Positions 1 through 56,643 of a DNA stretch of 64,000 nt are shown here, one piece after another. The stretch's first letter is position 1; each line of letters opens with the position of its first letter. The translations under genes were made by a program, and so were the position numbers. The stretch comes from an uncultured delta proteobacterium. GTDB taxonomy: Bacteria > Desulfobacterota > Binatia > Binatales > Binataceae. Where the stretch lies: contig CAWDTQ010000014.1 of NCBI GenBank assembly GCA_963805315.1, forward strand, positions 523,058 through 587,057, read 5' to 3'. A model generated the notes under the pieces. The model saw nothing but the letters and a program-made list of their open reading frames with translations, was not told where the DNA came from and ran no database searches.

Positions 1-189
1 CCGCTGATCGATATTGCAATCTTCGTCGAAACTCCGCGCGACGAACGTCGAAAGCGGATGTTGGCGCGCGGGCACCTCGAAAGAGACCTTAACAACGATT
101 GGTTGACACCGTGGATGGCGGCGGAGGATTGGTACTTCGCCAACGTCCGGCCGTCTGAGCATGCCGACCTGGTCGTGGCGGGAATCTGA
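1..189 (+). CDS. 3' end of a CDS cut by the window edge; possibly a P-loop nucleoside/uridine-kinase-like protein
   Basis: Frame 1 is open from base 1 to TGA at 187-189 (PLIDIAIFVETPRDERRKRMLARG...ADLVVAGI*). Only 62 aa are visible, so the family call is weak. Confidence 0.3.
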   Translation, partial: PLIDIAIFVETPRDERRKRMLARGHLERDLNNDWLTPWMAAEDWYFANVRPSEHADLVVAGI

Positions 190-199
190 TCTGGAGAGT

Positions 200-1648
200 G
201 TGACTGTGAGTAACTTCGGGGCTGCCGTCTGCGAAACGTCTTTTCAGGAGCGACTCGACAGACTCCGCGCGAGTTATGCGAACCATGACGATTTGGTCCG
301 CGAGCTTGAGAGATTTGTGCGGACGGCGCCGGACGATCAGATCGTGCGCATCAATCCGATCCAGTATGCGGCCGATCACGGACGCGACGAGGCCCAGGTC
401 ATCGACCTGTTCCTGAATGCGCGCAAGGCGGGTCTGTTCATCATGGAGTGGCTTTACGTGTGCCGCAGTTGCGCGTCGATCATCGAAAGCTTTCAGGCGC
501 TGAACGCGGCGGGTGAGCACGCTTTCTGTAACACCTGCCTCGTCAACCGCGATGCGGACCTGAGTGATTTCGTCGAGGTCGGATTCACTGTCTCGCAAGC
601 GGTGCGCACGTCGCGGTTCCACGATCCCGAGAGCTTGAGCGCGAAGGAGCGGGCTATCGACTACAACATCTCTCCCAGTGCGCAGGCGAGGGACGGCACG
701 AAAGCGCGCGACTTCTATTGGCGCCACACCGTGTTCGTCAGCTATGTCGAACCCGGCGAAACCAGGAAGTTCCAAATCAACCTGGAGCCTGGATTTTTCG
801 CATTACGGTACGGTCCGGAGCTTACTGTGGATCCCTCATCGGACAATCGCGTTGAGCGCGTCGATATTATACATCGTGATGGCCGGCCGGCCGAGAAGAT
901 GCAGACCGTGGCGCCGGGATCGTTGACATACAATCTGACGAACGCCAGCCCCGCTCGCATCATCGCGTCCGCGATCAGCGTCAGTGAGGCAGAACGTACG
1001 TCCTTGAACGAGAAACCTCCGGGCTTCAAGCTGGGAGGCTTCCTGTCGGGCTCGCGACTCTTGTCGACGCAGACATTTCTGGATCTCTTCCCGTCGGAAA
1101 CAGTGATGAGCGCCGGCGGCCTGGCGGTCAAGCGCGTGGCGGTGCTGTTTACCGACATCAAGGGCTCGACCGCACTCTACGATCGTATCGGGGACATGAA
1201 GGCGTTCAACCTGGTGCGCCAGCATTTCGGCGTGTTGCGCGATGTGATTGCGGCGAACCACGGCGCGCTAGTCAAGACGATTGGCGATGCGGTCATGGCG
1301 AGCTTTCACGAACCGCTGAATGCCATTCGCGCCGCACTGGACATGCTCGCGCAGATCAGGCGCTTCAACGACAGCGCAGGCCAGGAACTGATCACGCTGA
1401 AAATTGGCGTGCATGTCGGGGAATGCCTTGCGGTGACGCTGAACGAGCGGCTCGACTATTTCGGGCGGACGGTCAACCTGGCGGCGCGCGTGCAGGGCCT
1501 GGCGACGGAGAACGAAATTTACCTGAGCGACGAGATGTACAACTTGCCCGGCGCCGCGGATTTGCTGGCGGCGATGAAATGTGACGCACGGACCGTCCAC
1601 GTCAAAGGCATCCAGCGCGAGATCGCCGTTCACGCATTGCGCGCCTGA
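200..1648 (+). CDS. Class III adenylate/guanylate cyclase with an N-terminal Cys-containing sensor-like domain (DUF5939-like)
   Basis: The C-terminal half carries cyclase motifs VAVLFTDIKGSTALYDRIGD, KTIGDAVMASF and GRTVNLAARVQGLA. The longest ORF starts at 161 but overlaps the upstream stop. GTG at 200 or 206 after GGAG (193-196) is the more likely start. Confidence 0.85.
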   Translation: MTVSNFGAAVCETSFQERLDRLRASYANHDDLVRELERFVRTAPDDQIVRINPIQYAADHGRDEAQVIDLFLNARKAGLFIMEWLYVCRSCASIIESFQALNAAGEHAFCNTCLVNRDADLSDFVEVGFTVSQAVRTSRFHDPESLSAKERAIDYNISPSAQARDGTKARDFYWRHTVFVSYVEPGETRKFQINLEPGFFALRYGPELTVDPSSDNRVERVDIIHRDGRPAEKMQTVAPGSLTYNLTNASPARIIASAISVSEAERTSLNEKPPGFKLGGFLSGSRLLSTQTFLDLFPSETVMSAGGLAVKRVAVLFTDIKGSTALYDRIGDMKAFNLVRQHFGVLRDVIAANHGALVKTIGDAVMASFHEPLNAIRAALDMLAQIRRFNDSAGQELITLKIGVHVGECLAVTLNERLDYFGRTVNLAARVQGLATENEIYLSDEMYNLPGAADLLAAMKCDARTVHVKGIQREIAVHALRA

Positions 1649-1711
1649 CATCAGCGCCCGACTCGACACTGCCGCTGCCGCAGGCTGGAGTCTTCCATGC
1701 CGGGAAATGGC

Positions 1712-4700
1712 CTAGGTGGCGATCGGCGGTCTGCGGCCGAGCGCCGAATAAAGATCCGCGACCGGCTGGGACGCGAGTAGCGCCTTCTTCAGGCCCGGTG
1801 TGTGGAGGTTGTTTGCAATCGCCTCGAGCGTCCGAAGCGCGCCCGTGAATTGCTCCTCCGCCTCCCGCTCTCTGCCTAGCTTAAGCAGAATCTGTCCGAG
1901 GGAGCATCTCGCCATCCAGACATCAGGCTGCGTTCCGATTCGCGCAGCTAGGGTGACCGACGATTCGAGGATTCTCGCCGCGTCTTCGAGCCGGCCATTG
2001 GCTGCCAGCACCATCCCCTGGAGCCGGCGGGCGCGCGCGATGTGCTTGCGGGAGTCGTGGTAGGTCGCCATCTCGAGCGACTCCGCCGCGAACTTGGTTG
2101 CGTCATCGAAGCGCCTCTCCGCCAGGGCCAACGCGCCGCGGGCACAGAGCAGCGGGATGTGCCAGCGCCACCGATACCAGGTGTCTTCCTCCAGCAAATT
2201 CCAGGCACGCTGCAGAAATTCCTCGGCCTTTCCGTGCTCGCCTTTTTCGAGGTGAGCCAGGCCGACTTTCAGTAACGAATGCCCGCGTGGCTCCGGCCAC
2301 GGCCACGCCGCTCGCGCGATCTCTTCAGCCTCAAGGTTGCGTTCCGCCGCAACATCCAGGTCGTAGAGTTCCAGATGCACTGCGCCGATCAAGTTGGGCG
2401 TGCGGGCGATCCAGAACTTGTCGCCGGCGGCGGAGCCATAGTCTCCCAAGCGCTGGTACCAGCGCAGCGCTTCCTCGTAGTTTCCCTGAGACAAGTGCGC
2501 GTTGCCCGTCAGGAAGACGCCGAAGCCATAGTGGAATCCCGAGTGAATCTTCTGGGCCAACTCGAGTCCTTCCTTGAGATGAGCCAGGCCTCGGTCAAAC
2601 TCGCCGCGCCACTGTAGTGCTCCGCCCAGGTACACCAGCGACCTGGCGAGCAACGGCTGGTTCTTGATCTCCTTGGACAGACGAAGAGCTTCTTCAGCGT
2701 CGGGTGTGGTCTCGACGATCTGACCCCACCCGGCTGTCCGGATCGCGACCCGGCTCGCGAGGCAAATTGCCTGATACTCGCGGTCGCCAAGTTCCCGCGC
2801 GATCGCGAGTGCCTGCTCGTTGTATTCGATCGGCCGGCTCTCCGCGATGCGAAAGGTCATAGGCCGCGCTGAGCCAGACCAAAGCTTCCATTTCGCGGCG
2901 TCGATCGCCCGCGCTGCGCGCCAGCTCCAACGCCTTCAAGTACTCCGCGGCTGCGTCGTCGTACTCGCTCAAGTTCAGCAGAATTTCGGCGTACTTGGAG
3001 TGGAGGGTCAGCAGAGCCTCCCAATCCGGAGGTGTGGAGAGCTTCGCCGCCGCGTCGAGCGCGCTGGCATAGTGCTTTTTCGCCTCTGCGTTCGCAAAGA
3101 CGTGCGCGGCCTGGTCTCCCGCGAGCGTGCCGTACTGCATCGCCTTTGCCCAATCCTCGCCGCGGGCGAAGTGATGCGCGAGTTCCCCGAAGTGCTCGGT
3201 CAGACGGTCGCGGTACAGCTCCTCGATTGCCTCGCCCACGGCCCGATGTAGGTCCTTGCGGCTCTGGACTAGCAGGCTGCTGTAGGCAACGTCCTGGATC
3301 ACCGCATGCTTGAAGATGTACCCCGGCTCGGCGAGCAGTCCCTGCTCGTAGATGATCTCCAGCGCTTTTAGTTCACCTAGCAGCCCCTCGAGCTTGCCGC
3401 TAAGTCCGGCGACCCGCTCGAGCAATCTCACGACGAATTGCCGGCCGATCACGGAGGCAAGCTGAACCATTCGCTTTCCATCGCCGCCGAGCCGATCGAG
3501 ACGCGCCATGATGATGCCCTGCATGGTGTCGGGCACGCTCAGATCTTCAAGGGCCCTGGTCACCCGGTAGTGCCCGTTCTCGCGCTCAAGAAAGCCGAGG
3601 TCAACCAGCGACTTGGTCATCTCCTCGACGAACAGCGGCACCCCTTCGGCCTTCTCCTCGAGCGCGATCTTTAATTCCTCGGGAAATTCCGTCGTCCCGA
3701 GCACGCGCGTCGCCATCTCCAGTGCTTGTGCTCCGGAAAGATGATGAAGATTTAGCGTGGTGTGAAAGCTTCGACCGGGAAATGGATGCATCTGCCCAAG
3801 GCGATGCGTCAATATCACCATCACGCGCGCGCCAGCGACCGAATCCATCGCGAAATCCAGGTATTCCCGCGTGCTGGTGTCGATCCAATGGAGATCCTCG
3901 AATACCAGCACCAGCGGCCTGAGCGACGCGCCGCGCAGCATCAGTGCGCGCAACGCATCGAACAACCGTTTTCGGCGCGCTGACGCATCCATGGCGGCCA
4001 CAGATGCATCGCCCGGGTCGGCGGAGAAAAGGTATCGCACGTATGACGTCTCGGCCTCGAGCCCGCCCATCGTGCGCATTCCCTGCTCGACTTTGGCGAT
4101 CAGTTCGGGCTCGCCATCGTCCTCGCGAACACCGAAAGTTTCATGCAGCTGATCGATCAGTGGCAGCATCGGGATGCTCTGGCCGAACGAGACGCATCGC
4201 CCTTCGAGCCAGGTGATTGGATCGCCGGCGGCCTCGAGCCGGCGGCGAAACTCGAGCAGGAGCCGCGACTTTCCAATCCCGGCCTCGCCCGCGATAAACA
4301 CGACCTGCCCGCGTCCGCCAAGGACTTCGCGAAAGAGATCCTGGAGGGCCGCAAGTTCCCTCTCCCGGCCGACCAGCGGAGTGAGCCCGCGCTCCGCGGT
4401 CACTTCCAGTCGCGTGCGTCGCGAGCGCGCCCCTGTCACTTCGAACGCGCGCACAGGGGCGTGACCTCTGATCTGCAGCTCGCCCAGGTCGACGGTGTCG
4501 AAGAACCCCTCGATCGCCCTGTGAGTCGCTTCACTGATTATTACGCTGGTCGGGCGAGCGGCGGACTGGAGCCGTGAGGCAAGATTGATCGTATCTCCAA
4601 TGGCAGTGTAGTCCATGCGCAAATCGTCGGTGATCCGGCCCACCACGACGATCCCCGTGTTGAGCGCGATTCGCATCTGCACGACCAGCCCGCTACTTTT

Positions 4701-5267
4701 CTCAAGATCCTTGCCGAATGAACCGAGCGCCCGTTGAATGGCCAGTGCCGCATGTACGGCGCGCCGCGGCGCGTCCTCGTGCGCGATCGGCGCTCCGAAC
4801 AACGCCATGAACCCGTCGCCGCCGTACTGGTTGATGGTGCCCTCGAAGCGGTGAATTTCGGCGGCGACCAGCTCGAAGCAGCGTTGAACGATACGATGGA
4901 CTTCTTCGGGATCGAGCTTCTCGCTGAGCGCCGTGAAGTTCGCGATATCCCCGAACAGGACCGTCACCTGCCGCCGCTCGCCTTCCAGCGCCGCGCGCCC
5001 GCTCAGAATCTTCTCGGCAAGATGACCGGGTACATCAGGAATGAACGCGCCGGCCGAAGGGCCCCGGGCTCCGCGCGGTTCTGAGTGTGAAGGTTCGGCA
5101 GAGGGAGCGGCGGGCGTTACAAGCTGGTTCCCGCACGCGCTGCAGAACCGCGCGCCGGCAGACACGGTCGCGCCGCAGCGCGGACATTTCAGTTCAAGCG
5201 GCGTTCCGCATTGCTCGCAAAACCGCGCGGCAGAGGGGTTGTCGAAGTTGCACGACGGGCACGTCAT
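1712..5267 (-). CDS. Double Zn-ribbon / class III nucleotidyl cyclase / P-loop STAND-like ATPase / TPR protein, split by a frameshift near 2855-2875 (ORFs 2694..5267 and 1712..2860)
   Basis: The N-terminus has CPSCNFDN..CEQCG and CPRCG..CSACG. The cyclase block is VTVLFGDIANFTALSE...YGGDGFMALFGAP. The Walker A motif is FIAGEAGIGKSRLL. TPR-like repeats continue seamlessly from ...EALVWLSAAY (frame 1) into TFRIAESRPIEYNEQALAIAREL (frame 2). Confidence 0.85.
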
Positions 5268-5604
5268 TGGATTACACAGTCCGCCGCTCAGAACCTATCG
5301 TCCCAAGTCTCGAAATCATAGTGCCATCCGACCGCGGCGCAATCTGAAATTCAAGACCGCTTCTACGACCGAAACCGCACGCGCCATTTGATTCAAGGAT
5401 CGAGATTCGCGATCCTGCGTGTGCACGCCGATGGCTACGTAAACCGATGTTGCGCGAAAGCGATACGGGCATATGGGCGACTGAAGCGCCTCAAAGATTT
5501 CTCGGCGCGGAGGTCGGCAGCCGCGAAATCCGTGCTGCCGGATGCCTACTCGTTCCTGTAGAATGGACACTACCCGCCGCGCAACCCGACATGGGAGCCG
5601 CAAC

Positions 5605-7128
5605 ATGGATAATCTGCTGACGATACAACGAACCCAGCCGGCGCCGCCGTGCACGGTTGTGATATTCGGCGCGTCGGGCGATCTCGCCAAGCGCAAGCTG
5701 ATTCCGGCGCTGTACAACCTGATCGCGTGCGGCAGGGGCGTGATGCCGAAGAAAAGCGCGGTGCTGGGATTTGCGCGGCGCGAAATGTCGCTCGACCAGT
5801 TCCGCAAAAGTGCGCACGATTGGACGGCCAGGTTCTCGCGCCTGAAAGTGGACGAGGGCTGCTGGGCAACCTTCGCCGATGGCCTCGACTATCTTTCCGG
5901 GCTCGACCATCCCGACGGTTTCGCAAAACTTAAAGCTAAACTTGAAGCTCTGGAAAAGGCCCGCGGCCTCCCGCCCAATCGCGTTTACTACCTGGCGATA
6001 CCGCCCGAAGCGATTGGCGATTCGGTCGAGCGGCTCAGCAAGGCGGGTCTTATCGCGGCGCCGGGCGCACCAAACTTCACGCGTGTCGTCGTCGAAAAAC
6101 CTATCGGCCACGACCTGCCGAGCGCGCTCGCGGTGAACAAGTTGCTGGTGAAGTATCTCGACGAGTCGCAGATTTTCCGCATCGATCATTACCTCGGCAA
6201 GGAGACCGTGCAGAACCTGCTGGCGCTGCGCTTCTCAAATAATATTTTCGAGCGACTGTGGGGCAGCCGCAACGTCGATCACGTGCAGATCACGGTGGCG
6301 GAGGTGGAAGGCGTCGGCACGCGCGCGATGTACTACGATCATTCGGGAGCGCTGCGCGACATGGTGCAGAACCACATCCTGCAAACGCTGTCGATGCTCA
6401 CGATGGAAGCGCCGGTGTCGCTCGACTCGTCGGCAATTCGCGACGCCAAGCTCAACGTGTTGCGCACGCTGCGCCCGATCACTCCGGCGGACGCGCGCGA
6501 GAATACCGTGCGGGCGCGCTACAGCGCGGGCGTCGACGAGAACGGCAAGCCGGCGCCCGCCTACATGGACGAACAGGGCATCGCGGACAACTCGAAAATC
6601 GAGACGTTCGTCGCGCTGAAGATGCACCTCGACAACTGGCGATGGTCGGGGGTGCCGTTTTTCATCCGTACCGGCAAGCGGATGAAGGCGCGCGCAAGTT
6701 CCATTTACGTGCAGTTCAAGGACGTGCCGCAAATTCTGTTCAATCGCGATTCGAAGGTTCCCGCCAACGCGCTGACGATTCGAATCCAGCCCGACGAAGG
6801 TTTTTCATTCGACGTGATGACCAAGCGGCCGGGGCTGGACCTCGTGCTGCAACCGGTGCGGATGAATCTCAGCTACAACGCCGCGTTCGGCGACGGCGCT
6901 TCGCCCGAAGGCTACGAGCGGCTGCTGCTCGACGTGATGGATGGCGACCATACGCTGTTCATCAGCGCGCAGTTCGTCGAGAAGTCGTGGGAGTTCGTGC
7001 AGGGAATCCTGGATTCGTGGAGCGACGCCGCGCGCGTGCCGATTGTCGAGTATCCGGCCGGGAGCTGGGGGCCGAAGGAAGCCGACGACTTGATTGGCTC
7101 GGTGGGCAGGGTGTGGCATGAACCGTAG
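5605..7128 (+). CDS. zwf: Glucose-6-phosphate 1-dehydrogenase
   Basis: Contains VVIFGASGDLAKRKLIPALYNL (NADP site) and the RIDHYLGKETVQNLLALRFSN signature. ATG 5605 is preceded by GGGAG (5593-5597). The longer ORF from 5542 is unlikely. Confidence 0.95.
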   Translation: MDNLLTIQRTQPAPPCTVVIFGASGDLAKRKLIPALYNLIACGRGVMPKKSAVLGFARREMSLDQFRKSAHDWTARFSRLKVDEGCWATFADGLDYLSGLDHPDGFAKLKAKLEALEKARGLPPNRVYYLAIPPEAIGDSVERLSKAGLIAAPGAPNFTRVVVEKPIGHDLPSALAVNKLLVKYLDESQIFRIDHYLGKETVQNLLALRFSNNIFERLWGSRNVDHVQITVAEVEGVGTRAMYYDHSGALRDMVQNHILQTLSMLTMEAPVSLDSSAIRDAKLNVLRTLRPITPADARENTVRARYSAGVDENGKPAPAYMDEQGIADNSKIETFVALKMHLDNWRWSGVPFFIRTGKRMKARASSIYVQFKDVPQILFNRDSKVPANALTIRIQPDEGFSFDVMTKRPGLDLVLQPVRMNLSYNAAFGDGASPEGYERLLLDVMDGDHTLFISAQFVEKSWEFVQGILDSWSDAARVPIVEYPAGSWGPKEADDLIGSVGRVWHEP

Positions 7129-7140
7129 AGAGGGTTTCTG

Positions 7141-7473
7141 ATGGCAAACGACGGATGCTGCAGTTCCGAAGCGCCGCTGGCGTGCGACCTCGACTCGATC
7201 GCCGCCGGCGATCGTCCGCGCTACAACGAATTGCGCCGGATGGTCGGCGCGGCGGTCGTCGGCAAGCGCGAACTGCCCGACGGCGTCGCACTGCAAATCT
7301 CGACTGAGCGCATCGCGCTCGCGCAGCTCGCGGAATGGATTTCGTTCGAGCGCAAGTGCTGCCCGTTTTTCGAGTTCAGAATCGACGTCGCGCCGAAGTC
7401 CGAGCCTGTGTGGCTGAGCCTGACGGGTCGCGAAGGCGTCAAGGAATTCTTGTCGCAAGCTTTCGCGCGGTAA
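7141..7473 (+). CDS. Hypothetical small Cys-containing protein (110 aa)
   Basis: An ATG follows GAGAGG. The composition is protein-like (..LAEWISFERKCCPFFEFRIDV..). The gene lies 12 nt downstream of zwf. No family was recognised. Confidence 0.5.
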   Translation: MANDGCCSSEAPLACDLDSIAAGDRPRYNELRRMVGAAVVGKRELPDGVALQISTERIALAQLAEWISFERKCCPFFEFRIDVAPKSEPVWLSLTGREGVKEFLSQAFAR

Positions 7474-9125: not shown

Positions 9126-10361
9126 ATGACGAAACCAGCGCCGGTGTACGTATTGGGCGGAGCGCAAACTGACTTTGCCCGCAATTGGTCGAAGGAAGGA
9201 AAGCATTTCGTGGCTATGATGCGCGAGGCGACTTTGGGCGCGCTCGAAGCTACGAAAATCGAGCCGCGCGAAGTTGAAACCGCGCACGTCGGCAACTTCG
9301 CCGCCGAGCTGTACGCCAAGCAGGGCCACATCGGCGCGTTTTTCGTCGAGATCGATCCCACTTTTTCCGGGCTGCCGACCAGCCGTCATGAGGCGGCGTG
9401 TGCGTCGGGCTCGATCGCGCTGATCGCGGCGTCGGCGGAGATCGAAGCGGCGCGCTACGACCTCGCGTGCGTGGTCGGCGTCGAGCAGATGAAGACCGTC
9501 GATTCCACCACCGGCGGCGACTACCTCGGCACCGCGGCGTGGTACGAACGCGAAGCGAAGGGAATCGAGTTCCCGTTTCCGAAACTGTTCGGCCGGCTCG
9601 GCGACGAGTACGACAAGCGCTTCGGCCTCAAGGACGAACACCTCGCGCACATTTCGGCGGTGAATTATTCCAACGCCAAGCGCAATCCGAACGCGCAGAC
9701 CCGCAACTGGTTCATGAGCGAGAGTCACGCGCAGCACGAAAGCAAGTTCAACCAGGTTATCGGCGGCCGCATCAAAGTTAGCGATTGCTCGCAGGTGACC
9801 GACGGCTCGGTCGCGATTTTCCTCGCGTCGGAAAAATTTGCGAGCGCGTGGGCCAAGCGCAATGGCAAGTCGCTCGCCGACATCCCGCGCATCCTCGGCT
9901 GGGGCCATCACACGGCGCCGCTCGAGTTCGACACCAAGGTGGCGGAGAGCCGCGACAACACTTACGTGCTGCCGCATACGCGACAGGCGATCGTCGACGC
10001 GTTCAAGCGCGCGGGCATCGCGGGCGTCGGCGAGTTGTCGGGAATCGAGACGCACGACTGCTTCACCACCTCGGAGTACATGGCGATCGATCATTTCGGA
10101 ATCACCAAGCCGGGCGAGTCGTGGAAGGCGGTCGAGGAAGGCGTGATCGAGCTCGGCGGCAAGTTGCCGATCAATCCGAGCGGCGGCCTGATTGGCGCGG
10201 GCCATCCGGTCGGCGCCACGGGAGTGCGCCAGATGCTCGATTGCCATCGGCAGATAACGCACAGCGCGGGCGAGTACCAGGTCGAGAACGCGAAGAAGTT
10301 TGCGATGCTGAACATCGGCGGCAGCGGCACGACCAGCTGCGTGTTTGTCGTCGGCAAGTAA
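9126..10361 (+). CDS. Thiolase-fold protein (acetyl-CoA acetyltransferase / SCP-x-type thiolase)
   Basis: The RBS is AGGAGG. Features include MTKPAPVYVLGGAQTDFARNW, an active-site-type AACASGS, and C-terminal GGLIGAGHPVGATG and NIGGSGTT. Confidence 0.9.
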   Translation: MTKPAPVYVLGGAQTDFARNWSKEGKHFVAMMREATLGALEATKIEPREVETAHVGNFAAELYAKQGHIGAFFVEIDPTFSGLPTSRHEAACASGSIALIAASAEIEAARYDLACVVGVEQMKTVDSTTGGDYLGTAAWYEREAKGIEFPFPKLFGRLGDEYDKRFGLKDEHLAHISAVNYSNAKRNPNAQTRNWFMSESHAQHESKFNQVIGGRIKVSDCSQVTDGSVAIFLASEKFASAWAKRNGKSLADIPRILGWGHHTAPLEFDTKVAESRDNTYVLPHTRQAIVDAFKRAGIAGVGELSGIETHDCFTTSEYMAIDHFGITKPGESWKAVEEGVIELGGKLPINPSGGLIGAGHPVGATGVRQMLDCHRQITHSAGEYQVENAKKFAMLNIGGSGTTSCVFVVGK

Positions 10362-10383
10362 TAGCGGCAATTTCGAGTTCTTC

Positions 10384-10422
10384 AAGCGGCGGTCCTCAAA
10401 GAGGGGTCGCCGCTTTTTTTTC
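10384..10422 (+). terminator. Rho-independent terminator after the thiolase gene
   Basis: A GC-rich hairpin aagcggcgg..(cctc aaa gagg)..tcgccgctt is followed by a run of 8-9 T. Confidence 0.75.
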
Positions 10423-10460
10423 TGATTGGCTCGCGCGCGCCGGCGCGGCACAATCGCCGA

Positions 10461-11369
10461 ATGCCAAGGAAAACACCGTTCACCCTCGTCGACGTCTTCA
10501 CCTCGCGGCCCTTCGGCGGCAACCAGCTCGCAGTTTTCACCGACGCCGCCGCGCTCAGCACGAGCGAGATGCAGGAGCTGGCGCATGAGATGAACTTCAG
10601 CGAATCGACGTTCGTGATGCCGCGCGAGTCTTCGGGCGCACGCCGCGTGAGGATTTTCACGCCGCGGCGCGAAATTCCGATGGCCGGGCATCCCACCGTC
10701 GGCACCACCTGGGTGCTCGCGAGCCGCGGCGAGATCGTGCTCGAAGCGGCGATCGTCGACGCGACGTTGCAACTCGGAATTGGGCCGGTGACGGTGACGA
10801 TCGAAAGCAGCCACGGCAAGCCGGATTTTGTCTGGATGGCGCATCGCGAGGCCGAGTTCGGTGCGAAGCGCAACGATCGCGAGCGCGTCGCGGCAGCCCT
10901 CGGAATCACGGCGGCGGACATTCGCGACGATCTGCCGATACAAAGCGTCTCGACCGGGTTTCCATTTACTTTCGTACCGCTGAAAACCCTCGCCGCGCTC
11001 GCGAAATGCGCGCCCAACGAGCCAGCGCACACCGCTTTGTTGAAGCCGGGCGAGCAGTCGCTTCCTTTATATATGTTTGTTGCGAGCGAGTCGGGCGAGT
11101 TCTCCGCGCGCTCGCGGATGTTCTCGCCGCATGACGGAGTTGCCGAGGACCCGGCGACCGGCGGTGCCGCAGCTCCGTTCGGCGCGTATGCCGCCTCATA
11201 CGGTTTGATCAAACCCGCGCCCAAGACATCATTCTTGATCAATCAAGGTGTCGAGATGGGACGGCCCAGTGAAATATGCGTCGAGGTCGCCCGCAAAGAC
11301 AGCGGCGCGTTCGCACTCCGAATCGGCGGTCGATGCGCGATCGTCGGCGAAGGCGCGATGTTCCTCTAA
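10461..11369 (+). CDS. PhzF-family isomerase-like protein
   Basis: The N-terminus FTLVDVFTSRPFGGNQLAVF...EMNFSESTFV and the 302-aa length are typical of the PhzF family. Confidence 0.9.
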   Translation: MPRKTPFTLVDVFTSRPFGGNQLAVFTDAAALSTSEMQELAHEMNFSESTFVMPRESSGARRVRIFTPRREIPMAGHPTVGTTWVLASRGEIVLEAAIVDATLQLGIGPVTVTIESSHGKPDFVWMAHREAEFGAKRNDRERVAAALGITAADIRDDLPIQSVSTGFPFTFVPLKTLAALAKCAPNEPAHTALLKPGEQSLPLYMFVASESGEFSARSRMFSPHDGVAEDPATGGAAAPFGAYAASYGLIKPAPKTSFLINQGVEMGRPSEICVEVARKDSGAFALRIGGRCAIVGEGAMFL

Positions 11370-11396: not shown

Positions 11397-11990
11397 ATGG
11401 ACGAAGGCCAAATCCCGTCGGTCGGTGAAAAGGCTCCCGAGTTCGCGCTCACCGACTCGACCGGCACCATGCGCCGGTTCGACGACCTGATCGCGCGAGG
11501 AATTTGCGTTATCGTTTTCTACCGCGGACATTGGTGACCGTTCTGCCTCCGCCAGTTGGCGGACTACTCGAAGCATCTCGAGGATTTTCGCGCAGCCGGC
11601 GCCGAGCTGGTTGCGATCTCCGTGGACGACGCGGCCCGCGCGGAGCCGGTCCGCAATGAGCTCGGCATCAAGTTTCCTCTCCTGTGCGACACGCGGCGCG
11701 AAGTCGTCACGGCCTACGGCCTGCTCAACACGCGTGAGAATGGCGGCATCGCTTTTCCTGCCTCCTTTGTAATCGACCGCGATCGCGTCGTCCGTTTCCG
11801 TGCGCTGGAGGATGTCGCATCGCGCGTGAGCGTGGACCAATTGCTTGGACTGGTGCGCGAGCTTGGCAAAGGCGGCGAAGCGACAACAACGAAAACACAA
11901 CCGCGCAAGCGCGGCGTGTGGCCCGGTGCGATGTTCGTCCGCGCGACGATGAACGCGCTTCGGCGCGGCGTTCGCGTCCAGTATAAATAA
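11397..11990 (+). CDS. AhpC/TSA (PRX_like2-type) peroxiredoxin with in-frame TGA at the first active-site Cys position: candidate selenoprotein (U-P-F-C)
   Basis: ATG 11397 reads ...KAPEFALTD...GICVIVFYRGHW-TGA(11535-11537)-PFCLRQLADYSKHLEDFRAAGAELVAISVDD... in a single frame through to 11990. A hairpin at 11548-11563 lies downstream of the TGA. The ORF track reports only the part from TTG 11556. Confidence 0.65.
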
Positions 11991-43968: not shown

Positions 43969-44085
43969 CCCCACATTCGGCGATCCAGTTCTCGCCGCCA
44001 CTGTACCTCTGAGTACAACCGGCGGGATTGATCCGGAAACATTGCTGGAGTTCGCTCCAGCCCTGATCGCACGAGGTCACATACA

Positions 44086-47000
44086 GTGCCAGGTTTTTCA
44101 TTGCGCAATCCGCATACCGTAATCGTGGGCGCGTTGCTCACGATAATTCTGGGCGTCGCGGCATTTCTGAGCATGCCCGTCGATGTCTTTCCCAATCTCG
44201 ACATCCCGGTCGCGGTCGTCGCCACGTTCTATCCGGGAATGCCGCCGCTAGATATCGAGGCGGACATCACGACCCGCTTCGAGCGTTTCTTCACGCTCGG
44301 CAGCGACATCGATCACATGGAGTCGCGATCGCTGCCGGGCGTCAGCATCATCAAGGTCTTCTTCCAGCCGGGCGTCGATCTGAGCGCCGCGACCGCGACG
44401 CTGGGCAACCTCGCGATGGCCGACTTGCGCCACCTTCCGCCCGGCACGCTGCCGCCGCTAATCCTGAAATCCGGGGCGTCGTCGCTGCCGGTGACTCTTG
44501 TCACGGTGGCAGGCCAGGGCTTCAGCGAGGCGCAGCTCCGCGACCAGGCGCAGTACAACATTCGCAACTGGATCGCGACCGTGTCCGGCACGTCGGTGCC
44601 TCCGCCATTCGGCGGCAAGTACCGGCAAATCATGGCGTACGTCAATCGCGACGCATTGCAGGCGCGCGGTCTGACCCTGATGGACGTCGTCCATTCGCTC
44701 GACGACGCCAATCTCATCATTCCCGCCGGTGACGCGAAGATCGGAACCACCGACTACTTCGTTTACAGCAACAGCATGATCGACGACCCAGCCGACATCG
44801 ACCAGGTGCCGGTGAAAGTCGGCCCCGGCCAGCAACCGGTGCTGCTGGGCGACGTCGGTCACGTCGAGGACGCGGCGCAGATTCAGCAGAACATCGTGCG
44901 CATCAACGGCCAGCGCTCGGTGTACATCCCCGTAATGAAGCAGGGCAACGCCAATACGATCGCGGTCGTCGACGGCGTCGGCAGTGCGATCAAGCGAATC
45001 GCCGGCCTGCCGAACGGGATGAATGTCAAGGCGATCTTCGGGCAGGACTCGTACGTGCGCGCCGCGATCGAGAGTCTCGAGCATGAAGCGGCCTCGGGCG
45101 CGGTGCTGGCCTCGTTGATGATCCTGATTTTCCTCGGCAGCTTCCGTTCGACGGTCGCGATTTTCCTGTCGATCCCGCTTTCGATACTTGCCGGCGCCTT
45201 CGGCCTGCGGATGAGCGGCGCCACCATTAACGTGATGACGCTCGGCGGCTTCGCGCTCGCGATCGGCCGTTTGGTTGACGACTCGACGGTCGTGCTCGAA
45301 AACATCAACCGCCATCTGGCCCAGGGCAAGGCACCGCCCGACGCGGCGCGCGACGGCGCCAACGAAGTCGCGCTGGCAGTGCTCGCGTCGACGATCACGA
45401 CCATCATCGTGTTCTCGCCGGTGATGTTTCTGTTCGGCGTTGCGAAGTCGCTGTTCAGCGCGCTGTCGCTGGCAGTGGTGCTCTCGATGCTCGCGTCGTA
45501 CGTGGTCGCGATGACGGTGATCCCGGTTTTCTGCGCGCATTTTCTGACGGCGGAATCGGCGCACGAGGCTGAAGAAGGCACCGGCCGCGGCCTGCTGGCG
45601 GCGTTCATCCGCAGCTACGACCGCTTTGCGGAGCGCTACGAGCACCTGCTGGATCGGGTGCTCAATCATAAAGGCCTCGTGGTCGCGGGCGCATCGATTC
45701 TGTTCGTGGTGAGCATGGCCGCGTTTCCCCTGCTGGGAACCGAGCTGTTTCCCAGGACCGATGCCGGCCAGTTTGTCATCCAGTTCCGCGCGCCGCTCGG
45801 AACGCGTATCGAACTTACCGAGCAGCTGGCTGAGCGTCTGGAAAATACGATTCGAGAGGTTATACCGCCGGCTGAACTCTCGACGGTGGTTTCGAATCTT
45901 GGGTTGGCGCCCGGATTTTCGTCGATCTACTCGTCGAACGCGGCGAGCGACTCCGGCTTCGTGATGGTGGCGCTCAAGCACGATCATCGCGTCTCGACCT
46001 GGGACTACGTCGCGAAGCTGAAAGCGACGCTGCCCGCGCGGATCCCTGAAATCCGGACGTTCTTTTCGTCGGGAAGCATCATCGACTCGGTGCTCAATTT
46101 CGGATTGGCGGCGCCGATCGACATTCAGTTGAGCGGCCAGCATTACGCCGAACTGTTCGATCTGGCGCGCAAAGTCAAAGCGCGCGTGAAGGGCCTGCCC
46201 CAGGTCGCTGACACGTTCATCCCCGAGGAGTCGGACTATCCTACCCTCAGGATCAACGTCGATCGGGTGAAAGCCGGCGCGGCTGGGCCTCAACCAGCGC
46301 GACGTCGTGACCAACGTGATCACCGCGCTCACGTCGAATCAGATGATCGCGCCGTCGATCTGGATCGATCCGAAGAGCGGCAATGATTATTTCCTGACCG
46401 CGCAATACGCTGAGGACAAGATCGACTCGCTCGACACGCTGCGCGACATTCCGGTGCGAAGCAGCGACGGCGATCACTCGCGCGCCGACGCCCTGCTGCT
46501 GCGAAATGTCGCCACGATCACGCGCGAGACAGCATCCGGCCGAAGCGGACCACTACAACATTCAACGCGTCGTCGACATACTGGTTGCGCCGAGCACCGA
46601 CGACATGGGCGGCACGTTGAAGGCGGTGCAAAAGGCGCTGGCCAATTTCGAGCTGCCGGCGGGAACCGCAATCGCTTATCGCGGGTCGGTCGAATCGATG
46701 CAGCGATCGTTTTCCAGTTTCGGTTATGGGCTCATGATGGCGGTGGTGCTGCTCTACCTCGTGATGGTGGCGCAATTCCGATCGTTCCTTGACCCTTTCA
46801 TCATAATGTTCGCGGTGCCGATGGGTCTGATCGGTGTCGTGTGGACGCTTTATCTCACCGGCACGACGCTCAACATCGAATCGTTCATGGGGATCATCGC
46901 GATGGTCGGGATCGTCGTGTCCAACGCGATCCTGCTGGTGGACTTCGCCAATCGGCGCTTCCGCGGCGGCGAGGAACTGCGCATGGCGATCATCGAGTCG

Positions 47001-47216
47001 GCGAAAATCCGGATGCGCCCGATCCTGATGACGACGCTGGCGACGGTGGTGGGGCTGATGCCGATGGCGCTCAAGCTGGGCGCCGGCTCGGAAGCCTCGG
47101 CGCCGCTCGCGCGTGCGGCCGCGGGCGGACTGGCAGTTTCGACGCTGCTTACGCTGTTCCTGGTTCCCGCGCTTTACGAAATCTTCTACAGCCGTGATCA
47201 GCAGGTGTCTAAATGA
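44086..47216 (+). CDS. RND efflux permease (AcrB/CzcA superfamily), with two frameshifts (~46272-46280 and ~46535-46545); ORFs 44086..46386, 46307..46792 and 46506..47216
   Basis: The N-terminus reads NPHTVIVGALLTIILGVAAFLSMPVDVFPNLDIPVAVV. The middle reads LGGFALAIGRLVDDSTVVLENI. The junctions continue as ...DRVKA|ARLGLNQRDVVTNVITALTS and ...ITRET|HPAEADHYNIQRVVDI. The C-terminus reads GIIAMVGIVVSNAILLVDF..MRPILMTTLATVVGLMPMAL. Confidence 0.9.
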
Positions 47217-51227: not shown

Positions 51228-51303
<76 letters not shown>

Positions 51304-51335
51304 ACCGTCGAAGCTTGCTTACGTAGCAAGATGTT

Positions 51336-51412
51336 TGGGGTGAGTGAAGGGATTTGAACCCTCGACCGCCGGAGCCACAATCCGATGCTCTGCCAACTGA
51401 GCTACACTCACC
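51336..51412 (-). tRNA. tRNA-His (anticodon GTG) with the extra 5' G(-1), CCA encoded
   Basis: The acceptor stem is G-GTGAGTG / CACTCAC-C. The anticodon loop is TTGTGGC. The T-loop is TTCAAAT. Confidence 0.9.
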
Positions 51413-51498
51413 ACCTCGATCTTTTCAAGCGACCCGTTTCAATCCACACGATCAATCCAGCCGGCGCGTCGAGCCGCCGCTATCAGAGTTCGCCTCCG

Positions 51499-51575
<77 letters not shown>

Positions 51576-51578
51576 GTA

Positions 51579-51652
51579 TCGGGGCGAGCCGATTTGAACG
51601 GCCGACCCCCTGCTCCCAAGGCAGGTGCGCTACCAAGCTGCGCTACGCCCCG
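51579..51652 (-). tRNA. tRNA-Pro (anticodon TGG), CCA not encoded
   Basis: The acceptor stem is CGGGGCG / CGCCCCG. The anticodon stem CCTGC/GCAGG carries the loop CTTGGGA. The T-loop is TTCAAAT. Only 3 nt separate it from tRNA-Arg. Confidence 0.9.
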
Positions 51653-52393
51653 AGCCTTTAGGAAGTAACACACCGACGATCGGCTCTCAACCAATGTTCG
51701 TCCGCGCGCGGGTTTTCGTCACAAATTTATTCGTGCAATACGCGCCGAGTCACTATAGATGTTGGGATCGCAAGTTCGAGGCGCGAATTCTCCGAACGAA
51801 TTCTTGGCGAGCGTGAACCCGCCAAGCTGCATTCGGGTTTGATCGAAGCGGCGATCCTGCTCCTGGAGGGTGCAGTCCGGTTGCTGAGGATGCATCCTTT
51901 TGGATGCACCGTTCCAGATGCGCATGCAGTCAGATGCGAACATCATGGATCGCATGTAGCGGTTCGGTCGCAACTTGCAAAACCGCGATTTTCAATGGAA
52001 AGTGCTCGAATTCGGGACTTTCAGCGGTTCGCCGTCGCAGAAAGAGAAAAAAATTGGGTGGGGACGCCTTGGATTCGCCTCGATTTTCTTGAGGCACAAT
52101 GTTTGCTTCAGATAGACACCAGCGCTGACAATCTCCTCCCCCGAGACCAACAGCGTCTGTCCCCAAGCCAAGGCCGGGCTACTTGAACCGTGGCTCCCCA
52201 CTGCGGTTCCCCCAAATGTAGCCCGGCCGTTCTTTTTTCTCGAAACCCACTGTGACTCGGCCGCGCGATTTGCCACGGCCCGGCATCCTCCACGTTAAAA
52301 TCCACGGCGAGCTTTCGCCCAGGCATTTATGTTTCGCAAATTCTGCTAGGCTGATGCAGTCTGGGCTGACGCGTCCTCACCTGAAAATTTTCG

Positions 52394-55948: not shown

Positions 55949-56509
55949 TCATGCGTTCTGCTTCTGTGCGCCCGGCAGGTAGTCGTCGAGCGGCACGCCG
56001 AAGCTGTTAAGCGCCCACGAGACCAGGTTGTACTGCCCGATCGTAAAAACCGCGTCCATCATCTGCTCGATGCTGTAGCGCTCGGAGAGCTGCTTCCAGG
56101 TCTCGTCCGAAACCACGGATCTCTCGCGCAAATCGTCGGCCGCCTGCAGCAGCGCGGCGTCATGTTTGTCCCAGCCCGCCTTCGGACCCTTGCTGACTCG
56201 ATCGATTTCGTCGTCGGTAAGGCCGGCGCTCTTGCTGATTCGCACGTGCTGCTCCCATTCGTACGGGGCCTGGTTGAGCCAGCCGATCCGCAGAATCAAA
56301 AGCTCGCGATCGCGAACCGGCAGCGATAGACGACCCATGATGTAACCGGCGAAGCGCGCCCAGCTTCGCGTCAGTTTTGGATTCTGCATCAACACTTTGA
56401 AGATGTTGATTACTTCGCCGTTGACCTTGTTGCGCTCGGCCATTTCGCGATCCTCGGCGCTCAGGGTCGAAAGGTCGCGAAAAGGGATTCGTTGCTTTCT
56501 CGCAGTCAC
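55949..56509 (-). CDS. Carboxymuconolactone decarboxylase (AhpD-like) family protein
   Basis: Contains LLILRIGWLNQAPYEWEQHVRISKSAGLTDDEI. GTG 56509 lies 6 nt after GGAGGA and is preferred over the longer ORF from 56578. Confidence 0.75.
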   Translation of the reverse strand: MTARKQRIPFRDLSTLSAEDREMAERNKVNGEVINIFKVLMQNPKLTRSWARFAGYIMGRLSLPVRDRELLILRIGWLNQAPYEWEQHVRISKSAGLTDDEIDRVSKGPKAGWDKHDAALLQAADDLRERSVVSDETWKQLSERYSIEQMMDAVFTIGQYNLVSWALNSFGVPLDDYLPGAQKQNA

Positions 56510-56643
56510 TGGTATTCCTCCGTCATCGTTGTTGCGCGCGGGACGAACTTGCTTCGCGCGATCAGCTTTAATCCACAATCGGAATTTTCTCCAGCCGGTC
56601 GGCCTTGCGCGGCGGTGTCGTGTCGCGCGTAATTACCTCGGCG

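Follow-up and report, generated by a model that had tools for sequence, protein, structure and literature searches.

One described kind of selenoprotein is defined by a thioredoxin-like UxxC motif, in which U stands for selenocysteine (Sec) (PMC1088965), and is listed as 'Prx-like thiol:disulfide oxidoreductase, PF00578, UxxC' (PMC1794560, PMC13188914), Prx being short for peroxiredoxin. Under the name 'Prx-like 1' it counts 225 Sec sequences (PMC2398784), and the family has been found in the genomes of Geobacter, Syntrophus and Desulfotalea as well as in the Sargasso Sea and Global Ocean Sampling (GOS) metagenomes (PMC1088965, PMC1794560, PMC2398784, PMC13188914). Here we analysed a locus at positions 11397-11990, on the plus strand, of a 64-kb stretch of DNA (hereafter the window) from an uncultured delta proteobacterium. 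With high confidence we read it as one gene, which would encode a 197-residue Prx-like thiol:disulfide oxidoreductase selenoprotein of a Candidatus Binatus/Binataceae-type bacterium. By its predicted features the gene belongs to the kind just described, a placement made by the description of domain and motif. Like the published members, it has the PF00578 fold, many Cys homologues, a putative Sec insertion sequence (SECIS) directly after the UGA with a small G-containing loop, and a history of mis-annotation as truncated open reading frames (ORFs). It differs from them in its host, Candidatus Binatus/Binataceae of soil and peat, which is absent from the organisms in those papers, and in a conserved, basic stretch of about 30 aa at the C-terminus that marks its subfamily.

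The locus holds a single 198-codon ORF, from ATG 11397-11399 to TAA 11988-11990, with TGA 11535-11537 as its one internal stop. The TGA stands in the context ...CVIVFYRGHW-(TGA)-PFCLRQLADYSKH..., that is, ...VFYRGHW-(TGA)-PFCLRQLADY..., which gives the motif GHW-U-PFC. These coordinates are the same as those in the first-pass annotation, made from the letters of the window alone, which had proposed a Sec codon at this site. It had also noticed that the ORF track holds only the part after the TGA, and indeed the mechanical list gives 11556..11990 alone, with a TTG start and 144 aa. ATG 11397 was taken as the start because the in-frame TAA 11367-11369 ends the PhzF-like gene upstream, the selenoprotein gene beginning 27 nt downstream of it; this start also agrees with the M-D-E N-terminus of the orthologues. 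When Sec was written as Cys, the conceptual product of 11397-11990 matched Pfam AhpC-TSA (PF00578) at 9e-31, with 106.8 bits against a cutoff of 26 and over profile positions 1-123 of 124, and Pfam Redoxin at 7e-21. The parts of the gene, as we read it, are the following.

11397..11990, plus strand: complete predicted selenoprotein gene, 197 aa and stop, AhpC/TSA-fold and Prx-like, with U47-P-F-C50; 20 orthologues are collinear with it over residues 1-197.
11397..11534, plus strand: N-terminal 46 codons before the UGA, in which the AhpC-TSA/thioredoxin-fold domain begins (Pfam match from residue 9) and FYRGHW lies; omitted by gene callers.
11535..11537, plus strand: UGA, the putative selenocysteine codon U47, next base C; TGA in orthologues, Cys in distant homologues.
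11535..11546, plus strand: predicted redox motif U-P-F-C, a thioredoxin-like UxxC, from the alignment to solved peroxiredoxins.
11538..11547, plus strand: 10-nt spacer that separates the UGA from the hairpin base, from sequence and fold.
11548..11563, plus strand: candidate SECIS hairpin, with a 6-bp stem (11548-11553/11558-11563) and an AGUU tetraloop (11554-11557), from the minimum free energy (MFE) structure and comparative data.
11556..11558, plus strand: TTG codon of Leu54 inside the candidate SECIS loop, apparently mistaken for the start in the ORF list and in database calls such as entry P0001 (144 aa).
11901..11987, plus strand: basic C-terminal tail (PRKRGVWPGAMFVRATMNALRRGVRV...), from conservation across 41 sequences.

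A scan limited to one genome per species retrieved 20 orthologous loci (L001-L020), whose hosts are Candidatus Binatus/Binataceae or 'uncultured delta proteobacterium' metagenome-assembled genomes (MAGs) of the Binatota lineage, and whose products are 72-86% identical to the window protein over residues 1-197. All 20 carry TGA at codon 47 (W-TGA-PFC), and their first 46 residues are conserved in frame. Gene order is kept as well, running from G6PD through 3-hydroxyacyl-CoA dehydrogenase, thiolase and the PhzF-like gene to the Prx-like selenoprotein gene and a Kelch-repeat protein, an order by which the window is assigned to this lineage. The assemblies are independent and come from different studies and sequencing platforms, some being short-read by their contig names (k127_, k141_, 'ilm_asm'). 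Because the short-read assemblies also carry the TGA, a long-read miscall is excluded, and the caution in the first-pass annotation that a TGC or TGT might have been misread as TGA can be set aside. Over codons 2-46 the variable sites in the 20 genomes number 24, 19 and 42 of 45 at the first, second and third codon positions, and the ratio of nonsynonymous to synonymous change (pN/pS) is 0.31; after the TGA it is 0.20. Judged by these patterns, purifying selection acts in frame before and after the TGA.

In two long-read MAGs the frame of the Prx-like orthologue is lost after the TGA, in L019 at about 10480-10566, near codon 160, and in L020 at about 10250-10583, near codon 84. These losses probably stem from indels in the assemblies and not from true pseudogenization.

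The same point of truncation recurs in protein databases. Of the 420 homologues given by a protein search, the best 120 are all 141-148 aa long, cover 71-73% of the query and are N-terminally cut at one point; several of these 120 are labelled 'peroxiredoxin' by the Joint Genome Institute (JGI). On our reading these proteins appear cut short because the in-frame UGA is read as selenocysteine. TGA is not generally reassigned, since it is the commonest ordinary stop in the window, terminating 16 of 29 long ORFs. A search of the window for a second selenoprotein, by in-frame TGAs flanked by high third-position G+C, found none that was convincing.

More distant relatives have Cys where the window has TGA. 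FYRGHW-C-PxC was present in 60 of 60 further loci from the same genome scan, belonging to Gemmatimonadota, Planctomycetota, Bacteroidota, Myxococcota and others, a count which shows that Cys forms exist and align but not how frequent they are, since the retrieval pattern included Cys. The W-C-P-x-C motif named in that annotation for the PRX_like2 group is present in these loci, and the alignment that the first-pass annotation called for places Cys in the TGA column. Metagenomes were scanned with the DNA pattern FYRGHW-TGA-CC, and at least 120 contigs with FYRGHW-TGA-PxC were found. In nearly all of them the frame is open before and after the TGA, a few being frameshifted or too short to judge, and the TGA forms span several very different subfamilies. 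Orthologues that share the TGA, which had likewise been proposed as a check, were found in all 20 Binatus/Binataceae genomes, and the metagenome homologues share it too.

We then examined the hairpin that follows the TGA. In the MFE fold, tccgcc (11548-11553) pairs with ggcgga (11558-11563) around the AGUU loop (11554-11557). The hairpin begins 10 nt past the TGA, and its loop begins 19 nt after the U of UGA and has a G at position 2, all as first described. Because the hairpin alone does not rise above chance, the case rests on comparison with relatives. Codons 52-55 (CGC CAG TTG GCG, 11550-11561) show zero synonymous change in the 20 genomes, while the adjoining codons vary freely; of 70 conserved degenerate codons no more than 11 are invariant, and a run of four such codons has a permutation P of 0.02. 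The sole stem change within Binatus is CTC to CTT, by which a C-G pair becomes U-G. In nearly every sequence of the wider family the loop starts 20-28 nt from the U of UGA.

Comparison of TGA and Cys forms ties the hairpin to the TGA. An uninterrupted stem of at least 6 bp was found in 88% of 131 distinct TGA forms versus 24% of 59 Cys forms, and the mean folding z was -1.58 versus -0.14 (Mann-Whitney p ~1e-15 to 2e-15; p = 7e-7 in the high-GC subset), p-values that are indicative only since the sequences are phylogenetically related. AGUU lies at exactly nt 20-23 in 75 of the 131 TGA forms, and TTG or TTA serves as the Leu codon of the loop in 62% of TGA forms versus 20% of Cys forms. In the register of the window, with a 4-nt loop, both-side changes occur in 4 of 7 pairs (for example CUCCGUC/GACGGAG and UCAACC/GGUUGA), and 88% of cells are paired versus at most 69% with a slid partner, a percentage inflated by the best-fit placing of sequences into registers, which does not inflate the double changes. 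In the sister register, with an AGUUG loop, the covariation score is 0.608 versus 0.183 in shuffles, with 48 double-change cells. These results support the view that selection has kept this structure together with the TGA and that the hairpin acts as a SECIS element, and the SECIS-like character first suggested for it gains from the frozen synonymous sites, the TGA-specificity and the covariation alike. A family-wide SECIS of a 6-7 bp stem and an AGUU(G) loop from nt 20, counted from the U of UGA, is backed by covariation across phyla and could be used as a search model.

Genes for the Sec machinery were found next to homologues of the gene in other lineages. When all 201 sequences (2.0 Mb) were scanned in six frames for signature motifs of SelA, SelB and SelD, only L089 (SelD), L156 (SelB) and an EF-Tu-like sequence in L033 matched. 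L156 is a metagenome contig (Ga0153915_10159383, 1-2452, minus) with selB at 429-2264 (TIGR00475, 422.6 bits versus a cutoff of 242), a tRNA-Sec at 381-476 (anticodon UCA by ARAGORN; Rfam RF01852, 69.9 bits versus a cutoff of 47), and a TGA-bearing Prx-like gene that starts about 16 nt past the tRNA-Sec and runs from about 365 to the contig end, all three genes lying on one strand. In L089, selD (75-1160, minus; TIGR00476, 400 bits) lies about 2.5 kb from a TGA-bearing Prx-like homologue and carries an in-frame TGA of its own at the active site (HGAG-(TGA)-ACK). Identity to the window protein is 38% for the Prx-like homologue of L156 and 32% for that of L089. The linkage to selB and selC in the former and to selD in the latter concerns homologues outside the lineage of the window.

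On the strength of these comparisons, UGA 11535-11537 very probably encodes Sec through the hairpin 11548-11563. A conserved and covarying hairpin that is TGA-specific, lies at SECIS distance and has a G in its loop is, as far as comparison can tell, the signature of SelB-dependent decoding. The Sec reading proposed at first sight is in this way upheld by the TGA of the orthologues, the Cys column and the hairpin together.

Several observations weigh against this conclusion. The folding energy of the hairpin is no better than that of dinucleotide shuffles (z = -0.42); a comparable SECIS-like hairpin follows 6% of the 1708 TGA trinucleotides in the 62%-GC window, where any stem of at least 6 bp follows 24% of them. 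Thermodynamics was dropped as evidence, being indistinguishable from the shuffles and from other TGAs of the window. The hairpin is short (6 bp), no Rfam family matches 11548-11563, and, since the Binatus stem has one variable pair, the covariation evidence comes from more distant relatives, with the inflation of paired cells by best-fit placing described above. No NCBIfam selenoprotein or peroxiredoxin model scored above its cutoff, the values being 48.7 bits against 120 for the SelL-related NF040769, 36.1 against 270 for PrxU (NF040737) and 20.9 against 300 for the WAxxUGC ResA-like NF041054. Searches of the window and of the 20 Binatus loci (largely syntenic, about 0.4 Mb) gave no selA, selB, selD or tRNA-Sec. 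In the window this agrees with the first-pass annotation: Pfam on about 40 window ORFs gave no sel genes, and the four tRNA genes at 51228-51653 (minus) are Pro-TGG, Arg-TCT, His-GTG and Lys-CTT, none of them tRNA-Sec; ARAGORN reported no tRNA-Sec in the window and L001-L020. Our search of the literature on Binatota/Binatia found no report of selenocysteine use.

In the likeliest of the competing explanations, UGA 47 is recoded but not to Sec, being read for example as Cys through a tRNA-Sec-like tRNA, SelB and the hairpin, or as Trp or Cys by near-cognate read-through, so that the full-length product contains sulfur only. The lack of Sec machinery in the window and the 20 Binatus loci and the lack of a Sec report for the phylum in the literature searched would both fit this, as would the C that follows the UGA in all TGA forms, UGA-C being a context of weak termination. 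Natural recoding of Sec sites has been described. However, the hairpin at SECIS distance, conserved, covarying, specific to TGA forms and with its loop G, is against it, as are the homologues with AGUUG loops that adjoin selB, selD and a tRNA with anticodon UCA scoring as tRNA-Sec, and the position of the residue at the redox-active Cys, a classical site of Sec/Cys exchange. We regard recoding to a residue other than Sec as improbable, and slightly more so the particular form of it in which Binatus-type bacteria keep the UGA and the hairpin without a canonical Sec pathway and read the UGA as Cys or another residue by means of the SECIS-like hairpin and a non-canonical tRNA. If true, this would mean that SECIS-directed recoding can naturally yield a standard amino acid, here in a soil phylum for which no selenium use is known.

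If the TGA were instead a real stop, the product would be the 144-aa protein from TTG 11556, and the 46 codons before it an untranslated leader or a separate small peptide. The ORF track and the best 120 of the 420 database entries are called in this way, several under the JGI name 'peroxiredoxin', but uniform truncation is a known annotation artefact for selenoproteins (PMC1088965). Such a product would be without the N-terminal part of the AhpC-TSA/thioredoxin fold, which Pfam matches from residue 9, and without the whole redox motif; its TTG 'start' is the conserved Leu54 codon in the hairpin loop; and the upstream 46 codons evolve as in-frame coding sequence (pN/pS 0.31) and correspond in alignment to the N-terminal regions of full-length Cys homologues. 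We consider this very unlikely. Finally, a sequencing or assembly error for TGC or TGT, or a recent nonsense mutation, would mean that the window copy is artefactual or a pseudogene. The window does show a probable frameshift at least once, in the AcrB gene split at about 46390, and L019 and L020 are frameshifted later in the same gene; against this stand the identical TGA in all 20 independent assemblies, which differ in study and platform of origin, the TGA in at least 120 metagenome contigs, and the purifying selection on both halves of the gene, by which comparison the explanation can be taken as effectively refuted.

Returning to the reading of UGA 47 as Sec, we considered what the protein may be. 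In the alignment to solved peroxiredoxins, U47 lies opposite the Thr of PxxxTxxC and C50 opposite the peroxidatic Cys. Compared with the Aeropyrum Prx (5xbs, 2cv4), the window protein has Gly44 for the Pro, Sec47 for the Thr and Pro121 for the Arg, and keeps only the Cys; the canonical signature P-x-x-x-T/S-x-x-C with its conserved Arg was not found in the window protein. Since Sec takes the place of the Thr, and since neither the Pro nor the Arg is kept, we call the protein Prx-like and not a canonical thiol peroxidase. The earlier description of a peroxiredoxin with the TGA on its first catalytic Cys is thereby modified: the AhpC/TSA fold and the Prx-like character stand, and the TGA is indeed the first residue of the CxxC, but it aligns with the Prx Thr, while the Cys at the peroxidatic position is C50. 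A PF00578 domain together with UxxC replacing the TxxC or TxxU of Prx corresponds to the definition of the Prx-like UxxC selenoproteins.

Other relatives differ from the window protein at the active site or in their surroundings. The features of the window protein are consistent with PRX_like2 (cd02970 of the CDD), a group of Cys-containing AhpC/TSA proteins with W-C-P-x-C: the motif follows FYRGHW-[C/U]-PxC, the second Cys aligns with the peroxidatic one of Prx, and the other Prx catalytic residues are absent; in the window protein Sec would stand in place of the first Cys. The sole cd02970 selenoprotein in a 2026 review has UxxS, not UxxC (PMC13188914). PrxU of Eubacterium acidaminophilum (TxxU; NF040737) resembles the window protein in being an AhpC/TSA-fold selenoprotein with a SECIS inside the coding region, but the Sec of PrxU is the peroxidatic Cys (PxxxTxxU), whereas that of the window protein would be at the Thr position with the peroxidatic-position Cys kept. 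The thiol-disulfide oxidoreductases of the ResA type (W-C-x-x-C) match as well as true peroxiredoxins do; the lowest NCBIfam E-value, 1.3e-15, belongs to NF002854 (ResA-type; 57.8 bits versus a cutoff of 170), and ResA structures in the PDB match at down to 3e-13. ResA/TlpA-type proteins also have the attacking N-terminal Cys, but ResA is extracytoplasmic and membrane-anchored, whereas the window protein has no signal peptide and scores far under the cutoffs of that family.

Decoding would follow the known bacterial Sec pathway. As the ribosome nears UGA 11535-11537, the mRNA 10 nt downstream would fold into the 6-bp AGUU hairpin, to which SelB with GTP and Sec-tRNA(Sec) would bind; SelB would then bring Sec to the UGA, competing there with release factor 2, and translation would run on to TAA 11988. 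The minimal upper stem-loop of the Escherichia coli fdhF SECIS is a coding-sequence hairpin about 10-11 nt after the UGA, with the four-base loop GGUC. The window hairpin is like it in spacing and in a four-base loop with G-U at positions 2-3 (AGUU), and unlike it in having only 6 bp, with no bulged U or extended lower helix; it is a candidate SelB site. For the redox chemistry, the motif, the homologues and the chemistry of the thioredoxin fold suggest that Sec47, at the site of the attacking N-terminal Cys of the CxxC, would attack the substrate and that Cys50 would resolve the product into a selenenylsulfide, the pair probably cycling between selenol/thiol and selenenylsulfide. The predicted substrate is a disulfide, a sulfenic acid or a hydroperoxide, and re-reduction would be by a thioredoxin-type system.

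Past the thioredoxin fold, the protein ends in a basic tail of about 30 aa with the consensus P-G-x-M-F-x-R-A-x-x-N-A-x-R-R-G. Across 41 sequences P169, R172, G173, P176, G177, M179, A183, N186, A187, G191 and R193 are invariant, and a related tail was found in Sec and Cys members of the subfamily from several lineages (L021, L026, L027, L101, L135, L171, L190 and L193). In these alignments the conserved basic tail is specific to the subfamily that contains the window protein. A role as an amphipathic helix or in partner binding is only a guess.

Elsewhere in the window, the AcrB/AcrD/AcrF gene at 44032-47216 (plus) is split into two ORFs in different frames, which cover profile positions 3-729 and 799-1020 with the break at about 46390. 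This looks like an indel or frameshift; the remark in the first-pass annotation that the window contains many indel errors is plausible in this light, while the Prx-like ORF itself is intact. A carboxymuconolactone decarboxylase (CMD/AhpD-like) protein is encoded at 55949-56632 (minus); its family often contains selenoproteins elsewhere, and no in-frame TGA was seen in the window copy. A small Cys-rich ORF (MANDGCCSSEAPLACDL..., about 110 aa, third-position G+C 0.80) lies at 7141-7473 (plus), directly after the G6PD gene (TAG 7126-7128), and has no Pfam match. The signalling-protein cluster at 107-5294 holds two proteins with adenylate/guanylate cyclase domains, one with DUF5939 and the other with a double zinc ribbon, cyclase and AAA_16, followed by a TPR protein, and is unrelated to the selenoprotein gene.

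The kind of protein has been known since 2004-2005, its family and mechanism are about two decades old, and the understanding of selenoproteins is unchanged by this gene. The new elements are modest, namely a host lineage with no Sec report in the literature searched, a C-terminal tail of its own and a compact SECIS model. For the databases the finding would mean a correction of more than 100 truncated entries (141-148 aa), which start within the predicted SECIS loop and have no active site, where the correct product would have 197 aa with Sec47. For the uncultured Candidatus Binatus/Binataceae of soil and peat, within the Binatota, it implies the use of selenocysteine, which may bear on their selenium needs in attempts at cultivation.

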